Both the position numbers and the translations under genes were made by a program. The notes under the pieces were generated by a model. It did not search any database, was not told where the DNA came from, and saw only the letters and a list, made by a program, of their open reading frames with translations. Positions 11,692-23,631 of a stretch of DNA of 40,502 nucleotides are shown one piece after another. Numbering within the stretch: the first letter of the stretch is position 1; every line of letters starts with the position of its first letter. The DNA comes from a virus (lineage: Duplodnaviria > Caudoviricetes): positions 1 to 40,502 of the IMG/VR virus record IMGVR_UViG_3300028370_000002; one strand, written 5' to 3'.

Positions 11692-12977
11692 TCGTCTGAC
11701 TCCACCACGTTAAAAAACTCTTTCACCTTGCCCTCCAGCCCGGGAAACGCCCCGCTTTCAGTCAGTGTGTTTACAATTGTATCAGCAAGTGCCTCTTCTG
11801 GCAAGATATCCATGTCGAACAACACTTTTACGCTGTCAACCAGAACCTTGCCCATGTCGGCCCGTTCTTTTGCAGTCGGCTGGAATAGCGGACGCCACGT
11901 CCAATGCAATTCAGGCGGGCGATTGCCCAGCGCCGAACGGATCAGGCATTCGTTCAGGATTTCCATTGCTGGATCAAGATCGAGCGTCTGCATGACGCGG
12001 ACCCGATCAAAATAAACCTTCTCATCGCCCGCGCCGGTAGCGTTCATACCTGCCGCCGCAATGCCGAATAGCCGGGTCATCGGAACGCCCGCCGCCGCCG
12101 ATACCATCTGCATGAAGCGGTCGATGATGTCAGGCAGCGTGGCGAAGCTGGCGGTTTTCTGGTCGTATGTGTCCTCGGCGTCCATCAGCAGCGCGCCGTT
12201 AATGCCCTTCCCGCGCGCCGTCAGGCTGGTCCGGGCAAGGACCACAGCCTCATATTCCGAGCCGCCGCTGCGCAGCCCCTCGTTGAATCCATTGATGCCG
12301 ATCACGTCCACCTTGGCTTCAAACACCAGCGATGCGACGTTGGCGATTGTGGCGTCAAGATTCCGCACGGCGCTGATCGTGGCGTTCAGCGTACTGTCAC
12401 CCCATCCGGGATGTGCGGAATATCTGTCGTCCGGCACTTCCTCGCCCATTGCAATGACAAGGCGGCTCGGGTGGATTTCAACAGACGCGCCGGTAGCCGG
12501 ATTCATCCGATACATGATCGGTTTGCCAAACCCAGGCAGGCGCGGGTCGCGTTGGATTTCACCGGCGGTAATTTCCGACCGATTTAAGACGGCAAGATAT
12601 TGCAGCCCACCCTTGCCGATCCGGGCCGGATCCAGTGGCTTCGATGCGTCCAGGTCGCGCGTGCCGATATAGATGGCAGCGCCGCCGAACAACCGGGCGC
12701 GTTTGAGGTTTTGCATCGTCTTGCCCTGCAAACCCAGCCGCTTTTCCTCAGCCTCGATTGCTGTGATTTGTTCCGCGTCGGCCTGCCATTCCCGCCACTC
12801 GCGGGTCGCATCCTCTGCGGGCAGATCCACCACGTTGCGCGCAATCGCGCTGGTGCGGTACATGGCGACAAGCTGGTCATCGGCAATCGTGGTGTTGTGA
12901 TAGTAACTGTGCGCCGCCTTGTCCCGGTCTGTGCCGAGATTGGCGACGATGTTGCGCAGGCCGTCCATGATACTCAT
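11688..12977 (-). CDS. Portal protein (DUF1073-like)
   Basis: Follows TerL with ATGA overlap; ARNVVDLPAEDATR, IHPSRL and PMTRLFG...GMNATG motifs. Confidence 0.88.
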   Translation of the reverse strand: MSIMDGLRNIVANLGTDRDKAAHSYYHNTTIADDQLVAMYRTSAIARNVVDLPAEDATREWREWQADAEQITAIEAEEKRLGLQGKTMQNLKRARLFGGAAIYIGTRDLDASKPLDPARIGKGGLQYLAVLNRSEITAGEIQRDPRLPGFGKPIMYRMNPATGASVEIHPSRLVIAMGEEVPDDRYSAHPGWGDSTLNATISAVRNLDATIANVASLVFEAKVDVIGINGFNEGLRSGGSEYEAVVLARTSLTARGKGINGALLMDAEDTYDQKTASFATLPDIIDRFMQMVSAAAGVPMTRLFGIAAAGMNATGAGDEKVYFDRVRVMQTLDLDPAMEILNECLIRSALGNRPPELHWTWRPLFQPTAKERADMGKVLVDSVKVLFDMDILPEEALADTIVNTLTESGAFPGLEGKVKEFFNVVESDE

Positions 12978-14386
12978 ATTGTTCCAGCCCATGAATTGTT
13001 TACGCCCGACAGCATATCAAACGCGCGAGTCGCAGCGTCGATCTGGTCTTTGAACTTGCCCATCGGGAACGTCGCAGCTTCGTCCAAAAAGTCACCATTC
13101 CAATCGCCTGCCACAATGTCCACGTTTCCGGCTTCAACCTGTGCCGCCAGGGGCATTGCGCGCGTTTCTTTGTCGCCCGTTTCAGGGCTTGACGTGTAAC
13201 TGTAACCCATCAGCGCGGATTTGAGAAGATGTAAAGCCCATGATTTACCGGCGGATCCAGGATCCTGCGGAATTGAGCCACGAACCGCCCGCCCATCTGC
13301 CGCCGCCGTGCTGCCCAGCAGCCGTTCAACCCCCGCAGCGTTTACCCGGTCTTTGACAACATGAGCGATACATATGCGATTGTCCGGGCCGATTCCCAGC
13401 TTGACGCCAGCCGTCCGTGCCGCTCCGGGATCATCGGTTGCGGCCAAGTCCCATCCCCTCACCCACCGATAGCCCGCAGGCTCCGCTTGGATAACGCGAA
13501 AGTCTGACCGCTTGAACATGCCGCCGCCGCGCGGTGCAGGGCGTTGTTGAAGCTGACCGGCGCTGGCGTAGATGCCCATGGTCTTTTCAAGGTCCGCCAC
13601 TTGGTCCTCTGGGAACCGATCAGGAAACAGCAATTCGCCTTCGATTGTTCGCGGGTCGGTGTAGAACGGCGTGGAACATCGCCGGTCCGATTCAAACCGC
13701 ATCGGCAGGCACAGGTGGGTGTATCCCAGACCAATCGCCACGGCGGAAACGTCGGACTCGTGCAATCGCTGCATGATAATCACAATCGCGGATTCATCGT
13801 TATTTACACGGGACGGTAGGGCTTCCCGGAATGTCGTAACGCCTGTGGCAAGTTTCTGGACGCTGTTGGCGTCCGCAACGCTGTGCGGATCGTCGATCAG
13901 AACCCTATCGCCGCGCGATCCGGTCATTCCCTCGAATGCCATGGCTTCCCGGAACCCTGTCTTGTCATTTTCAAAACGCAGCTTGGCGTTGTTGTCCGCC
14001 ATCAGGTTCATTGGCCAGCGTGATTGATACCAGTCCGACTGAATCAGGCGACGGCATTTCATTGCGTCCCGGACGGCCAAGTCTTGTTTGTGCGCCGTGC
14101 CAAGGAACCGCATGTGCGGCTTGGCCTGCGCGCCCCATTCCCAAGCGGGCCAGATCACGCCGGTCAGCAGAGACTTCATGGTGCCGGGCGGCACGTTCAT
14201 CAGCAGGCGGTTGATGTCGCCCCGCGTGACGGCTTCCAGGTGCGCACAGATAGCGTCCAGCGCCCAGCCCCATTTGAGCGGCGTGGACGGCTCCAAGACG
14301 TGCCAGGCGCGCCGTGCAAAATATGCCAGTGATCGGCGGCACAGTTCTTTTTCGGCGGCAATGATGTCAATCGGTGTCAGTTGCAT
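12974..14386 (-). CDS. terL: Terminase large subunit
   Basis: Walker A-like NVPPGTMKS, Walker B LIDDPH, coupling motif IMQRLHE, nuclease WDLA and DQIDA; likely start MQLTPID. Confidence 0.93.
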   Translation of the reverse strand: MQLTPIDIIAAEKELCRRSLAYFARRAWHVLEPSTPLKWGWALDAICAHLEAVTRGDINRLLMNVPPGTMKSLLTGVIWPAWEWGAQAKPHMRFLGTAHKQDLAVRDAMKCRRLIQSDWYQSRWPMNLMADNNAKLRFENDKTGFREAMAFEGMTGSRGDRVLIDDPHSVADANSVQKLATGVTTFREALPSRVNNDESAIVIIMQRLHESDVSAVAIGLGYTHLCLPMRFESDRRCSTPFYTDPRTIEGELLFPDRFPEDQVADLEKTMGIYASAGQLQQRPAPRGGGMFKRSDFRVIQAEPAGYRWVRGWDLAATDDPGAARTAGVKLGIGPDNRICIAHVVKDRVNAAGVERLLGSTAAADGRAVRGSIPQDPGSAGKSWALHLLKSALMGYSYTSSPETGDKETRAMPLAAQVEAGNVDIVAGDWNGDFLDEAATFPMGKFKDQIDAATRAFDMLSGVNNSWAGTI

Positions 14387-14780
14387 CGCCAAGCGCCACA
14401 ATTTCCGCCAGGGCTTCAGGTGACAGGCGGGATACGTCCAGCGCGGCCTTGGGCGACATGCTGCCGTCCTCACTGATCAGGTTCACGTCAGCCGTTTCAC
14501 GCCACCGGGCGCGCGTCTTGAGCCAGAACGTCATGGACGCCGTGTCGCCGCCCTTGGCTTTGTTGAACAGCGCGCCGCCGATTGTGGCGTTTGCTTTCGC
14601 CATAGATAGGTCCAACTCGTCGCGGTAGTGCAGCCGCAATGTCTTTTTGTCGATACCTATCACGCGGGCGATCATGTCCTGTGTCGTGCCGACCGTCGCG
14701 TGAAGCTGCACAAGCTGGCGCTGCGCATCGGTTGGCGCGTGCTGTTTGCGGCCACAGGGTTTTTTAGGCATTCCATCCAT
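14367..14780 (-). CDS. terS: Terminase small subunit
   Basis: HTH (IARVIGIDKKTLRLHY) and ALFNKAKGGD...FWLKTRARW; overlaps the TerL start. Confidence 0.85.
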   Translation of the reverse strand: MDGMPKKPCGRKQHAPTDAQRQLVQLHATVGTTQDMIARVIGIDKKTLRLHYRDELDLSMAKANATIGGALFNKAKGGDTASMTFWLKTRARWRETADVNLISEDGSMSPKAALDVSRLSPEALAEIVALGDATDTD

Positions 14781-14786
14781 GCGTTA

Positions 14787-14815
14787 AATATAGCGCGGGT
14801 AATTATGGTTGACAA
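14787..14815 (-). promoter_or_regulatory. Sigma70-like promoter for the packaging/structural operon, probably leaderless
   Basis: TTGTCA-N17-TATATT-N6-ATG(terS); no SD upstream of the ATG. Confidence 0.6.
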
Positions 14816-14837: not shown

Positions 14838-14861
14838 GGGTGTAACAGAAGGAGACACACC

Positions 14862-15029
14862 ATGACCAAAGAGCAATACGCCGACCTGAACGCCACGATC
14901 TTTGATTTTCAAAAGAAGATCATGCTGCATGACATCGCCAGCATGGACCCTGAGGTCCGCGCCACGATGGAAGCGGTCGAGGCTCAACTTGACGCCCTGC
15001 GCACGGGCAAGCTGTTTGAATTGCGCTGA
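14862..15029 (+). CDS. Hypothetical 55-aa protein (not in the ORF track)
   Basis: AAGGAG SD; MTKEQYADLNATIFDFQKKIMLHDIASMDPEVRATMEAVEAQLDALRTGKLFELR*. Confidence 0.7.
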   Translation: MTKEQYADLNATIFDFQKKIMLHDIASMDPEVRATMEAVEAQLDALRTGKLFELR

Positions 15030-15053
15030 ACACACCGGCAAGGAGCCAAGACA

Positions 15054-15254
15054 ATGACCAACCCACATGAAACATTTTGCCTCGCAACCGCTACACATTT
15101 TGTAGCGGTTCGGGGCCGGGGCCAGCAACGCACCCGCAAGGATTGCGCAACGATGGACGACGCCAAGGCATACGGTGCAGCCTACGGCGACAAGCGCACG
15201 ATGGTTTACGCGGTCAATGCCTTGGGCAACAGCGCCCACATCTGCAACGTCTAA
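15054..15254 (+). CDS. Hypothetical 66-aa protein
   Basis: AAGGAG SD; leader ACACACCGGCAAGGAGCCA is also found at 32091. Confidence 0.7.
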   Translation: MTNPHETFCLATATHFVAVRGRGQQRTRKDCATMDDAKAYGAAYGDKRTMVYAVNALGNSAHICNV

Positions 15255-15955
15255 CCCCTGGCTGGCCCCGTCACATTCCAGAACAGCACAAGCCCGGCAC
15301 CGTGTCGGGCTTTGCACATTTTCCAAGCCTTCGCGTCATAGTGCGGATCGCTCGGGAATGGCGGCTGATCCTTCAGGGCCTTGGAAAATGGTATCCCCGC
15401 CTTGTGGATTGTCGCCCCCAGAACATCCGCTGATGAAAGCGTGCGCCCCACCTCCACAACGTGCCGCCGGGCTTCTGGCCAAGCCTTTGCAAGCGCCCGC
15501 GCCAAAACGCCTGAACCGCTGGCGCACCAAACTTCGTCCGGTTGCAGGCCGCTCATGCGCGCTGCCTCTGCGATCTTCTCAATCGCCTCGGGCATGTTCA
15601 CGCCGAAAGGTGCGAGCCTTGCGCCGGTCCTTGCGCAATACTCTCTCGCGCGCGCCTGCACCACCGTCAGATAGCCCGGCGAAACCTGCATCACCTTTGC
15701 GCCGACCCGCTTGGCTTCCAGCGCCCTTGCGTGTGGCGTGGCCCTCTTTGCCACAAAGATTGTCGCCCGCTTGCCTAGCGCCGCTGCTGTGTGCGCCAGT
15801 GCCGTCTGCGCGCCACCCTCGCATGGAGAGGCGTAAACAACCTCGTCGGCATCATCAAACAACGCGGGCAGAAAGCGCGCTTTGGTGCCGCCAAGGAATA
15901 GATCATCACGAATGACATGGATTCCGCTGTGGACCGTAACGACCGGCGGCGTCAC
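15251..15955 (-). CDS. PLP-dependent enzyme, fold type II (ACC deaminase / D-cysteine desulfhydrase-like)
   Basis: RDDLFLGGTKAR (Schiff-base Lys region), ASGSGV phosphate loop, DPHYDAKAW and VLFWNV; GTG start at 15955 overlaps the MTase stop (GTGA). Confidence 0.8.
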   Translation of the reverse strand: MTPPVVTVHSGIHVIRDDLFLGGTKARFLPALFDDADEVVYASPCEGGAQTALAHTAAALGKRATIFVAKRATPHARALEAKRVGAKVMQVSPGYLTVVQARAREYCARTGARLAPFGVNMPEAIEKIAEAARMSGLQPDEVWCASGSGVLARALAKAWPEARRHVVEVGRTLSSADVLGATIHKAGIPFSKALKDQPPFPSDPHYDAKAWKMCKARHGAGLVLFWNVTGPARG

Positions 15956-17400
15956 AGTTCTTCGCCTAAATCGCTGTTTTCTGTCTCGGGCTCTGGAATG
16001 TGAACCTCTACAACACCGCACGCCTTTGTCGCCTTGGCCCCGTCGCCTTTGACAAACACCAGCACGTTTTGGTGCGTCTTGCCGAGCTTGCGGCTTGCTG
16101 TGAATTGCCGACCAGCCCTCATTGCTGTGGAGCCGATCATCGTCAAAAGGATAGCCTCGTTGTAATAATTCATCCCCGCTGCCTTGAACGCCTCGACCGT
16201 ATCGCCGACAAAGTTGTAATAGTTGCCTTTTTTGTCTCGCACATCACCGACTACAAAGCAGGCAAAACGATCCTCCTTCAGTCTAGCACAGGCCTTGGCG
16301 ATAATTTCAAAGTACACAGGCTTAAACTCATCATACTTCAGCGTGGAAAGGTCGCTGGGGTCGTCGCTGTAAACCTCAAGATCAGCATATGGCGGGCAAC
16401 CGATAATAAAATCAGCATCTACGTCCGCGCATATCCGGTCAATGTTTCTGCTGTCGCCAGTATGCCATACAGGAGGGGTGTCGGGACAAAGGTCATCACC
16501 CTACACCCTGTTCGCCGCCACCTGTTCATCGCGTAACTCAACTCCAATGTATTGACGCCCCAAACGTGATGCTACAACGCCGCGCACCGATCCGCCCGCG
16601 AACGGGTCAAGGATTGTGCCGCCTTGCGGGCTGAACCAGCTATACGCTAACTCGCACAGAACGGGGTCGAAGATGCTTGTTCCGGATTGCACACTGACAT
16701 TCGGGTTATTCAATATGAACTCATCCATATTCACTTTGCGACCAATGCTGTCCTCGTAAGCATTCTTAGCTTTGTAAACTGTGGGGCTTTGGCTGCTTGT
16801 TGCATAAGCAAGCTCCCCATCCCTACCAACTTCACTTTCTATTCCAAGGGCCGTCCAAGCCTCCTTTCTGCTTTGCCACCAGCCTTCACGAGCATTCAAA
16901 ACCGAAAAGGGTGCAATGCCAAACTTGTCAGCAAGGCTCATGGTTGACGGATTGTCGCCCTCGCCGGGCAAATTAGCCGCCTCGGCCAGCATGTCAATCG
17001 CTTCAATCTCACCCAATTCAAACCCGGTCAGCGTCAGGTCAAAGCCCGCCGCTTCCAGATCCTGCAACTCGATCTTGAGCAGGTCGTTGTCCCATCCGGC
17101 ATCCAATGCCATGCGGTTATCTGCCAGCACATAGGCGCGGCGCTGCGCCTCGCTCAGGTGTGCGGCGTCAATCGTCGGCAGCGTATCAAGCCCTAGCTTC
17201 TGGGCCGCCATGACGCGCCCGTGGCCCGCCACAATGCCGCTCTGCCCGTCTGTGATGATCGGGTTGAGAAACCCAAACTCGCGGATCGAGGCGGCAATCT
17301 TGTCGACCTGCGCGGGGCTGTGAGTCCGGGCATTGCGCGCGTACGGTATCAGGCTGGCGGTCGGAACCGTCTTATATTGGGGAAATTTCGGTGCAGGCAT
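15952..17400 (-). pseudogene. ParB-like domain fused to a SAM-dependent DNA methyltransferase-fold domain, interrupted by one in-frame TAG at 16501-16503 (482 codons if read through)
   Basis: ParB N-terminus (PYARNARTH, IVAGHGR, LADNR); motif I DPFAGGS; after the TAG the same frame continues GDDLCPD...GDS...CPPY...FVVGDVR...HQNVLVFVKGD and joins ORF 15952..16317. Confidence 0.85.
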
Positions 17401-17681
17401 CACAGATTGGTCCCCCTTTTGCGCGGTTGTGTAACTGGCACACCCTTAGCCGCGAATGCCAACATGCCGTCAGTAACACGATTGTCGGGGTTGATACCAG
17501 CCAGGTCAAGCACTTCACGGCCATTCCGCGAGTTTGCCCACAGTGCCAGGGTTTTTAGTGCCCGGCCTTTTTGATTTTCGGGCTCTCTTGCGGCATGGTG
17601 AATTGCATCATTGATTGAGGTTAGCACTACGGCAGACCACAGGGCCCGCATCCGTGCGGCTTGTTCCGCGTTATCGGTCAC
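17400..17681 (-). CDS. Hypothetical protein
   Basis: 93 aa, coupled to both neighbours. Confidence 0.65.
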   Translation of the reverse strand: MTDNAEQAARMRALWSAVVLTSINDAIHHAAREPENQKGRALKTLALWANSRNGREVLDLAGINPDNRVTDGMLAFAAKGVPVTQPRKRGTNL

Positions 17682-22627: not shown

Positions 22628-23077
22628 TCACAGCGTCACCGCCACGCCCAGCGCCTCAGCCTGTGCAAACAACCACCTGCGGCACTCAGGCCAACCGTCA
22701 CCAATCAGCACATGCGGCGCGTGATGCTTGACCCACATATATGCATCCAGCCGATCGGCAAAGCGCAGCCTCTCATATTCGTCCGGCGTCAATTCGGGCA
22801 GTCCCGGCCAGATACGATCCAGCGCGGCCCGCTCTTGCTCGTGGATAACCGTTGCACCCTTTGTGGTGGACGGCACGTCCCCGACCACGGATTCCCCGTC
22901 ATCATGCACCAGCGCCCAGTGCAGCAAGGCCTTGGAGGCATCAGGCCACAACTTGATGATGATGCGCGCCACCCGCCCGCCGTGGCCCGCCAGCGTGTCA
23001 ACGGTCTGCGCCAGATCCGGGTTGGTGTGCCAGCGCCGGACAAAGCTGGCCCTGAATTGTGATTGTATGTCAGTCAT
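22628..23077 (-). CDS. HD-domain phosphohydrolase (YfbR-like 5'-deoxynucleotidase family)
   Basis: RRWH, H...HDDGESVVGDVPS and ADRLDA motifs. Confidence 0.78.
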   Translation of the reverse strand: MTDIQSQFRASFVRRWHTNPDLAQTVDTLAGHGGRVARIIIKLWPDASKALLHWALVHDDGESVVGDVPSTTKGATVIHEQERAALDRIWPGLPELTPDEYERLRFADRLDAYMWVKHHAPHVLIGDGWPECRRWLFAQAEALGVAVTL

Positions 23078-23631
23078 AGGTTAGGCCTTTCCAAAGGTGT
23101 GTAACGACACTGAAGCGCGGGCATTGCGTCCCAGACTGTCCAGCAAAATTCCATTGTCGGTGACTTGCCTCGATCTAGCGCCATAGCGGGCCGCCACAGC
23201 ATCGGCATAACCGCTGCCGGTCCAGTCTCAAGGAACAGCGCGTGCCGACTCTTTGCGTGCCAGAACGTGCCCTTCAGCAGCAGGGCAAACGGCACCTTCA
23301 TCGCCCTGATATATCTGATGAACTCAACCGCCAGTGCAAAGGGCGGATTGGTGATGACGGCACCGCAAGGCCGGGGCATGGTGGCCAGCATGTCCACGCC
23401 GCCTGTGCCGTATCCGGTGTGTCGGATGTCTGTGCTGCACACCGCGTGGCCGTGCGCCTTCAGCACCTCACTAATTGCCCCAAGACCGCAAGCGGGTTCC
23501 CAGATCACCCCAAACACCGGCCACGCGCGCAACAGCGCCACCGTGCATTCTGGTGGCGTCTCATAAAAGTCCGACGCATGCCTTGCGTGTTCCGCCGACG
23601 ATCCGCCGATGATGGTTTTTCCCGGTATCAT
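23074..23631 (-). CDS. DNA N6-adenine (amino) methyltransferase
   Basis: DFYETP, motif I EPACGLG and motif IV TNPPF. Confidence 0.85.
   Translation of the reverse strand: MIPGKTIIGGSSAEHARHASDFYETPPECTVALLRAWPVFGVIWEPACGLGAISEVLKAHGHAVCSTDIRHTGYGTGGVDMLATMPRPCGAVITNPPFALAVEFIRYIRAMKVPFALLLKGTFWHAKSRHALFLETGPAAVMPMLWRPAMALDRGKSPTMEFCWTVWDAMPALQCRYTPLERPNL

Follow-up and report, generated by a model that had tools for sequence, protein, structure and literature searches.

Amino acid-bearing bases in phage DNA are known from Pseudomonas phage M6 and Salmonella phage ViI, whose respective enzymes gp52 and gp226 remove the carboxyl group from amino acids attached to thymidine in DNA, a reaction that requires a free primary amine; the amino-acid hypermodifications set out in the same work, by Lee et al. 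(PMC8989533), start from 5-hydroxymethyldeoxyuridine (5-hmdU) and use free amino acids. Passages of PMC10491745 describe MccD, a protein of methyltransferase fold, and MccE, a decarboxylase dependent on pyridoxal 5′-phosphate (PLP), which aminopropylate microcin C, together with Tyw2, a Rossmann-fold enzyme that transfers a 3-amino-3-carboxypropyl (acp) group to a tRNA base. Here we analyze a locus in IMG/VR virus record IMGVR_UViG_3300028370_000002 (Duplodnaviria; Caudoviricetes), a complete phage record of 40,502 bases with direct terminal repeats that we refer to in its entirety as the window. The locus pairs a ParB-fused transferase, which has an S-adenosylmethionine (SAM)-binding methyltransferase fold and a CPPY motif IV, with a small PLP enzyme close to the terminase genes. 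An earlier note had read this pair from the DNA letters as a two-step hypermodification system.

The linkage, fusion and homology of these sequences give good support to a DNA hypermodification route in which two steps are coupled. In the route that we propose, an intact ParB-fused transferase would hand the acp arm of SAM to the exocyclic amine of a DNA base (candidate targets are A-N6, C-N4 or G-N2), and the PLP enzyme would then decarboxylate the acp group to a positively charged 3-aminopropyl group. Judged from sequence and from analogy with described enzymes, acp transfer followed by decarboxylation in intact copies has, in our estimate, about an even chance of being correct. Phages without a PLP gene would stop at the acp base, and decarboxylase, hydroxylase, GNAT and CxxCxxCC domains would represent optional tailoring steps. 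The genes, their linkage and fusion, the stop, the folds and the relationship to M6 gp52 are direct results of the analysis; from them we infer that DNA is the substrate, that acp rather than methyl is transferred, that decarboxylation follows, and that modification occurs at packaging. The last point draws on where the genes lie and on a proposal by Aravind that passages of PMC4738411 and PMC8256090 cite. The module appears to be real and conserved, and it is apparently an undescribed candidate hypermodification system: we found no description of the transferase/PLP pair in a literature that was mostly judged without full texts, Iyer et al. 2013 and all supplements, which may mention PLP genes at ParB-terminase loci, lying outside the search. 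The elements of the module in the window are as follows.

15952..17400, minus strand: frame of the ParB-fused CPPY transferase, 482 codons from ATG to TGA (N6_N4_Mtase, E 1e-11; phrog_498, E 2e-135).
16954..17379, minus strand: ParB-like N-terminal domain, about residues 8-149 (phrog_620, E 2.5e-49; ParB_N at residues 25-77).
16579..16608, minus strand: motif I, DPFAGGSVRG, with a conserved arginine (the DPxxGxxxR pattern is common to the sister SPPY family).
16501..16503, minus strand: in-frame amber stop TAG at codon 300, in place of a conserved Gln (from contigs and relatives).
16387..16398, minus strand: motif IV, CPPY (here GCPPY), kept in 148 of the 150 best representatives.
15251..15955, minus strand: intact 234-aa fold-type II PLP enzyme, a predicted M6 gp52-like decarboxylase (phrog_7093, E 1e-53; PALP, E 2e-10; tree and fold).
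15881..15883, minus strand: Lys25, the predicted Schiff-base lysine of the PLP enzyme, aligned with K36 of M6 gp52 and K92 of ViI gp226.

The fusion of a ParB domain to a methyltransferase fold with CPPY at 16387-16398 had been read exactly, with matches to ParB_N and N6_N4_Mtase, and the TGA of the transferase does overlap the GTG start of a 234-aa fold-type II PLP gene with the motifs RDDLFLGGTKAR, ASGSG and DPHYDAKAW.

Homologues of the PLP enzyme, 1,391 of which were found among the candidates scored, are genomically linked to the transferase, which is present at 134 of 150 PLP-anchored loci. These loci include near-duplicates, and dereplication at 85% leaves 59 transferase rows linked to the PLP clade of the window, nine of them fused proteins. 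Four of the 16 exceptions lie at contig edges, and most of eight others that we inspected are truncated or stand beside transposase-like genes (labels assigned by eye), with one, L154, being an apparent intact orphan. This one-way dependence fits a tailoring enzyme. Queries with tblastn for aGPT, 5-HMUDK and radical-SAM partners found none at the 150 PLP-anchored loci, and scans of the window's own open reading frames (ORFs) contained none of these families. Three queries detected terL in at least 42 of 70 fully flanked loci.

The two activities are also joined within single proteins. In the Erythrobacter phages R6L and ZS04 and in Pam4 (for example ZS04_7 and Pam4_70), the PLP domain interrupts the Rossmann fold at the loop that holds the stop in the window; a passage of the R6L paper names the fusion a CcrM-like methylase (PMC5463345). 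Of 17 longer homologues, 8 have such an insertion, as do 14 of the 150 transferase representatives; a further five representatives bear the PLP domain at the C-terminus. All but two of these 19 representative fusions carry a second, Pam4-like PLP clade, the profile of which gives its best scores to ViI gp226 and M6 gp52. An Asp_Arg_Hydrox domain is added in four fusions, and a gene of that size lies between the transferase and PLP genes at nine loci (both of the two tested match Asp_Arg_Hydrox). Nine representatives carry a cysteine-rich domain, named CxxCxxCC from the one tested, a family that we take to include the flagellin lysine methylase FliB. A PAPS-reductase-like gene, of a kind that occurs in other DNA-modification loci, is found about 1.4 kb upstream of the fusion in the Erythrobacter phages (L035:4389-5432 and L036:1-939).

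Homology places the PLP enzyme with phage decarboxylases. Both it and M6 gp52 belong to phrog_7093, and a tree of 32 rows groups its clade of 15 rows as sister to M6 gp52 with a Rhizobium phage homologue (support 95/95), apart from an AcdS/DcyD branch (97/99) that leaves the window enzyme outside. A profile of this clade built without M6 scores M6 gp52 at E 2e-14, compared with 3e-4 to 0.1 for six cellular enzymes and 0.04-0.1 for the ACC (1-aminocyclopropane-1-carboxylate) deaminases. Lys25 is invariant and aligns with K36 of M6 gp52 and K92 of ViI gp226 (residue numbers from PMC8989533). The predicted model (predicted local distance difference test score, pLDDT, 90.8) is fold-type II and matches D-cysteine desulfhydrase, threonine deaminase and ACC deaminase. 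No NCBIfam of the AcdS/DcyD type matched the window enzyme, and PDB sequence searches with it returned nothing meaningful, the L21 matches being taken as chance. Because the enzyme groups with M6 gp52, decarboxylation is likelier than deamination, elimination or replacement, and it is predicted to be an M6 gp52-like decarboxylase, not an ACC deaminase.

The CPPY transferase family comprises 1,934 clusters at E up to 1e-30 and occurs on about 700 viral stretches, and its motif I reads DPFAGGSVRG in 134 of 148 representatives. A predicted model of the read-through core (pLDDT 91.8) adopts an unpermuted class I Rossmann fold, and sequence comparison with solved proteins places it nearest to N4C/N6A DNA methylases. 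The fold and motif I of such enzymes are present, while CPPY falls outside the listed [DNSH]PP[YFW] set for motif IV. Compared with 2ZIE, motif X reads TSIFDP in place of HPAPFP and motif I reads AGGSVR in place of AGTGTT. The residues that differ are at least 90% conserved in 86 members and presumably occupy positions that bind the methionine arm of SAM. Two proteins, P0140 and P0157, contain two tandem CPPY transferase domains each.

For an enzyme that decarboxylates amino acids on DNA, something must first supply the amino acid, and the one partner seen consistently at these loci is a SAM-binding enzyme with a base-amine pocket, which would make acp the donated group. Since M6 gp52 and ViI gp226 need a free primary amine, acp would fit, having both a free α-amine and a carboxyl, whereas methyl has neither; the Asp_Arg_Hydrox and GNAT partners would likewise suit an amine-bearing chain. 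The reading of the earlier note is partly supported: its two-step pathway stands on linkage, fusion and homology, with the ACC-deaminase-like second step giving way to decarboxylation as the likelier reaction.

Several results weigh against this pathway. The PLP enzyme is only 26% identical to M6 gp52 over 212 residues (BLAST, E 3e-12) and has no significant similarity to ViI gp226 in direct comparison, and its nearest solved folds, D-cysteine desulfhydrase and threonine deaminase, are eliminases. The closest folds of the transferase core are the tRNA m2G methylases Trm11/TrmN/Trm14 (Z 17.5-18.5), which are true N-methyltransferases; MccD ranks 20th (Z 14.9, 9% identity), tied with many methylases, and Tyw2 is not among the 50 listed fold matches, although it may still be related. 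When loci are anchored on the transferase, 38 of 80 have the PLP gene and 42 have none (five of these with less than 1 kb downstream); in the PLP-free loci that we inspected by eye, the transferase mostly leads straight into terminase-like genes. PALP and AdoMet decarboxylase were found in none of the 42 records behind PLP-free loci, a set whose 39 viral records include only 5 with a completeness of 90% or more. Among 29 cultured-phage records that contain the transferase, a PLP partner showed up in only 4. Cultured phages carry intact versions both with a PLP gene (R6L, ZS04, Pam4 and Mae-JY30) and without one (B054 and HCTV-2). Transferases with and without a PLP gene intermix on a tree of weak support in which two mixed pairs are starred, which fits an optional add-on but yields no acp signature; a search for residues separating the two groups gave none that was clear, the largest column frequency difference being 0.48. 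Finally, the phage with the stop reaches a contig depth of 384 in one run, so the product of the module is not needed for propagation there.

Four other explanations draw on the same observations. The best placed of them, though improbable, is that the transferase is an ordinary packaging-linked amino-methylase with C for S/D/N in motif IV and that the PLP enzyme acts on something else from the same locus. The sequence matches to N4C/N6A methylases, the fold matches to m2G methylases and the absence of the PLP gene from half of the transferase loci all suit such an enzyme, as does the prediction, in passages of PMC4738411, that ParB-terminase methylases modify DNA during packaging. Plain methylation nevertheless leaves unexplained why two PLP clades have repeatedly entered the transferase fold, why intact PLP genes hardly ever stand alone, and why no other amino-acid donor is present. 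A shade less probable is that the transferase adds acp and the PLP enzyme catalyzes another fold-type II reaction of the kind that the earlier note had suggested: deamination to a 2-oxo acid, replacement, or γ-elimination, which could even erase the mark. Eliminases and deaminases are the best structural matches, and the YD/YE position beside the conserved Tyr is common to the PLP enzyme and ACC deaminase (DPVYEGK), but no phage decarboxylase of the enzyme's family is among the fold matches, and both tree and profile place it with M6 gp52, with the shared ending PFP..P.YD.KAW...FWN.

The order of the steps could also be reversed with the same product: the PLP enzyme would make decarboxylated SAM (dcSAM) from SAM and the transferase would hand over the aminopropyl group, with host dcSAM serving where the PLP gene is absent. 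This would account for the optional PLP gene, and passages of PMC10491745 leave the reverse order open for MccD/MccE; we nonetheless hold it slightly less likely again, as the nearest characterized PLP relative acts on DNA-bound amino acids and AdoMet decarboxylase, tried as a substitute partner, occurs in 0 of 42 CPPY records and, among 80 records of the sister family, in one, where some 4 kb separate it from the transferase. Least likely of all is transfer of acp or aminopropyl to another acceptor (DNA backbone phosphate, RNA or a packaging protein), for although MccD alkylates a phosphate (a phosphoramidate) and the top folds of the transferase are tRNA enzymes, the xPPY motif IV pocket is of the base-amine methylase type (passages of PMC4738411), DNA is the acceptor suggested by the ParB fusion and by the location at the terminase genes, and the PLP relative acts on bases.

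A sister SPPY family, whose homology to the CPPY core has E values of about 1e-9 to 1e-10, came into view through P0127, a longer homologue in which the PLP domain is fused to a different ParB transferase with DPCHGWGGR and TSPPY. Its partners are those of the CPPY family: PLP, hydroxylase, GNAT and CxxCxxCC. The PLP gene is present at 10 of 80 SPPY-family loci, directly downstream at one (L251) and fused at another (L312). Among the 120 listed members, a GNAT-like domain was seen in four that were inspected (three with Pfam hits) and a cysteine-rich domain in four. Scanning with a single domain of the sister family yielded no locus. Three large viral contigs (L311:2309-9503, L318 and L322) carry three or four tandem GWGGR-type transferases with an M6-like PLP gene among them. 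CPPY, which the earlier note had singled out, is not the key signature, because the SPPY family takes the same partners. Both families have arginine at the ninth place of motif I, a residue absent from four ordinary methylases in which the motif was found (a small control). Transferases with tailoring partners may thus be marked by this arginine more than by the cysteine.

We therefore put forward a broader proposal, which we hold a little more tentatively than the two-step route itself. The motif-I-arginine "methylases" (CPPY and GWGGR/SPPY, on over a thousand viral contigs) would use SAM as an amino-acid donor on DNA bases and, with swappable tailoring domains (two PLP decarboxylase clades, 2OG-Fe hydroxylase, GNAT and CxxCxxCC), would produce acp-, aminopropyl-, hydroxy- and acetyl-aminopropyl bases at packaging without a modified nucleotide pool, the window phage being a natural null whose intact relative is 95% identical. 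If true, the DNA methylase fold would gain a new reaction, the annotation of many genes as phage methylases would be wrong, and phages would have a one- or two-protein route that puts a side chain from SAM onto ordinary DNA. It could also give a simple enzyme for placing primary amines on DNA, and cultured phages with intact versions make the module directly testable.

The amber stop sets the window copy apart. The earlier note had mentioned it only in passing as needing repair, yet it is central: the TAG at codon 300 separates the SAM-binding half (motifs X, I and II) from the catalytic half (motifs III and IV), so that no uninterrupted frame runs through motif IV and the product would consist of ParB and the SAM-binding half, without the catalytic half. 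The stop lies in the loop where relatives hold inserted PLP or CxxCxxCC domains. Gln occupies this position in 195 of 202 spanning loci, and the four stop rows among them all come from two contigs identical to the window at the transferase gene. Contigs of runs X1, X2, X8 and X9 span the TAG without a variant letter at depths of 63, 52, 15 and 384; X1 and X2 are a possible source of the window DNA, the four runs, all from lakes in 2017, may belong to a single campaign, and rare variants are lost from contigs. A relative from a salt lake, in X18, reads CAG at this position, its sole difference across 241 bases, and shows 95% identity across 1,171.

We rejected an assembly error, given four contigs at depths of 15-384 without an alternative letter, and genome-wide TAG recoding, given that an internal TAG occurs only in the transferase among 22 genes checked, that TAG serves as the terminal stop of two genes and that the search for tRNAs came up empty. 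The PLP gene itself terminates with TAG at 234 aa, the usual homologue length. Re-initiation to give a split enzyme was likewise set aside, as no in-frame ATG, GTG or TTG lies between the stop and motif IV. No decay is seen past the stop (synonymous changes exceed non-synonymous ones by about 2:1 against five relatives), and the stop is therefore probably a recent nonsense allele. A host suppressor may still allow a low level of read-through. The transferase of the window phage is probably inactive, a natural null, and virion DNA of this phage is probably the wrong place to seek the product. A loss-of-function allele at high depth suggests that the mark is conditional, not essential.

Other relatives also have stops or breaks in the transferase frame (L011:4352-6004, L029:1088-2647, L004 and L019), mostly in the variable region between ParB and core, and some of these may be natural two-gene forms as in Mae-JY30. 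In the window, the transferase core (15952-16950) has a GC content of 0.52, compared with 0.61 for the ParB part and 0.63 for the PLP gene; relative to L003, the ParB part is near-identical and the core has diverged (GCPPY, MIGSTAMRAG and a longer variable insert). This suggests that the low-GC core is a swapped allele, possibly with another target sequence. In the salt-lake runs X12 and X18, contigs matching the ParB part (16900-17400) and terS (14400-14800) total far deeper than core contigs, with a contig joint departing at 17182, contig depth not being copy number; in many relatives ParB thus seems to be accompanied by different cargo.

The rest of the window has head, tail, polymerase, primase and lysis genes in ORF scans, and the phage is present in lake metagenomes, with no RNA data set among the records listed for it. 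Bacterial genomes with relatives of the PLP gene are mostly alphaproteobacterial, which suggests a host in that group. The genes that flank the module or bear on it are these.

17400..17681, minus strand: DUF6280 gene (E 1e-17), whose stop overlaps the ATG of the transferase.
14367..14780, minus strand: terminase small subunit gene terS (phrog_309).
12974-14386, minus strand: terL (phrog_38), after terS, with the portal gene (phrog_146) next.
23074..23631, minus strand: separate NPPF DNA methyltransferase, motif I EPACGLGAIS, without the arginine (phrog_799, E 2e-43).

The module is near terS, though not directly upstream as had been stated: the two are separated by 470 bases with two small opposite-strand ORFs (14862-15254, plus strand) and a promoter-like site at 14815-14787, a pattern found three times against 2.1 expected by chance. 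The second small ORF is phrog_21360, and its stop overlaps that of the PLP gene. Other contigs of these lakes omit or replace part of this gap (joint 14844 to 15029), which makes it a variable slot. The NPPF methylase at 23074 is present as described but is weak evidence for a different role of the CPPY enzyme, since R6L encodes five methylase-related proteins (passages of PMC5463345). Beside it lies an HD-domain protein (22628-23077, minus strand) with a weak match to the dATP triphosphohydrolase family phrog_7076 (E 1.5e-5); ORF scans of the window contained no PurZ-like family. Six-base palindromes are strongly avoided in the window (observed/expected, O/E, 0.45), as are GGCC and GTAC, and GANTC occurs 65 times against 95 expected. 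As a sign of restriction shielding this avoidance is uninformative, the 6-mer O/E of 0.45 being equal to that of the hypermodified control M6 (0.45).

Set against described systems, the PLP enzyme resembles ACC deaminase and D-cysteine desulfhydrase in fold (template modeling score by query 0.70-0.79) and in similar RDD..GG.K and Y-x-x-K motifs, but is about 95-105 residues shorter (234 aa vs 328-339), 16-20% identical, off their branch, and matched by profile at only E 7e-4 to 0.1. With M6 gp52 it has in common phrog_7093, a sister clade at 95/95, an aligned catalytic lysine, fold-type II and a phage genome. The substrate of M6 gp52 and ViI gp226, however, is made from 5-hmdU by a kinase and aGPT, neither of which was found in the window or the 150 loci, whereas the partner in the window is a SAM-binding methylase fold beside the terminase. 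That partner is like the ParB-terminase (ParB-Tls) methylases of Iyer et al. (PMC4738411) in its ParB fusion, unpermuted amino-methylase fold and position before terS/terL; the passages on these enzymes describe predicted N6A methylases, with no CPPY or PLP partner. Like Tyw2 and Trm11/TrmN/Trm14, it is a Rossmann fold that would act on a nucleobase, the Trm11 family being the best fold match (Z 18.5, root-mean-square deviation 2.6, 183 aligned), although those are tRNA enzymes without ParB. MccD and MccE, as described in part in PMC10491745, act on a peptide-adenylate phosphate, and MccD is only a generic fold match to the transferase, but the chemistry proposed here would be theirs: a methyltransferase-fold acp transferase and a PLP decarboxylase that together yield an aminopropyl group.

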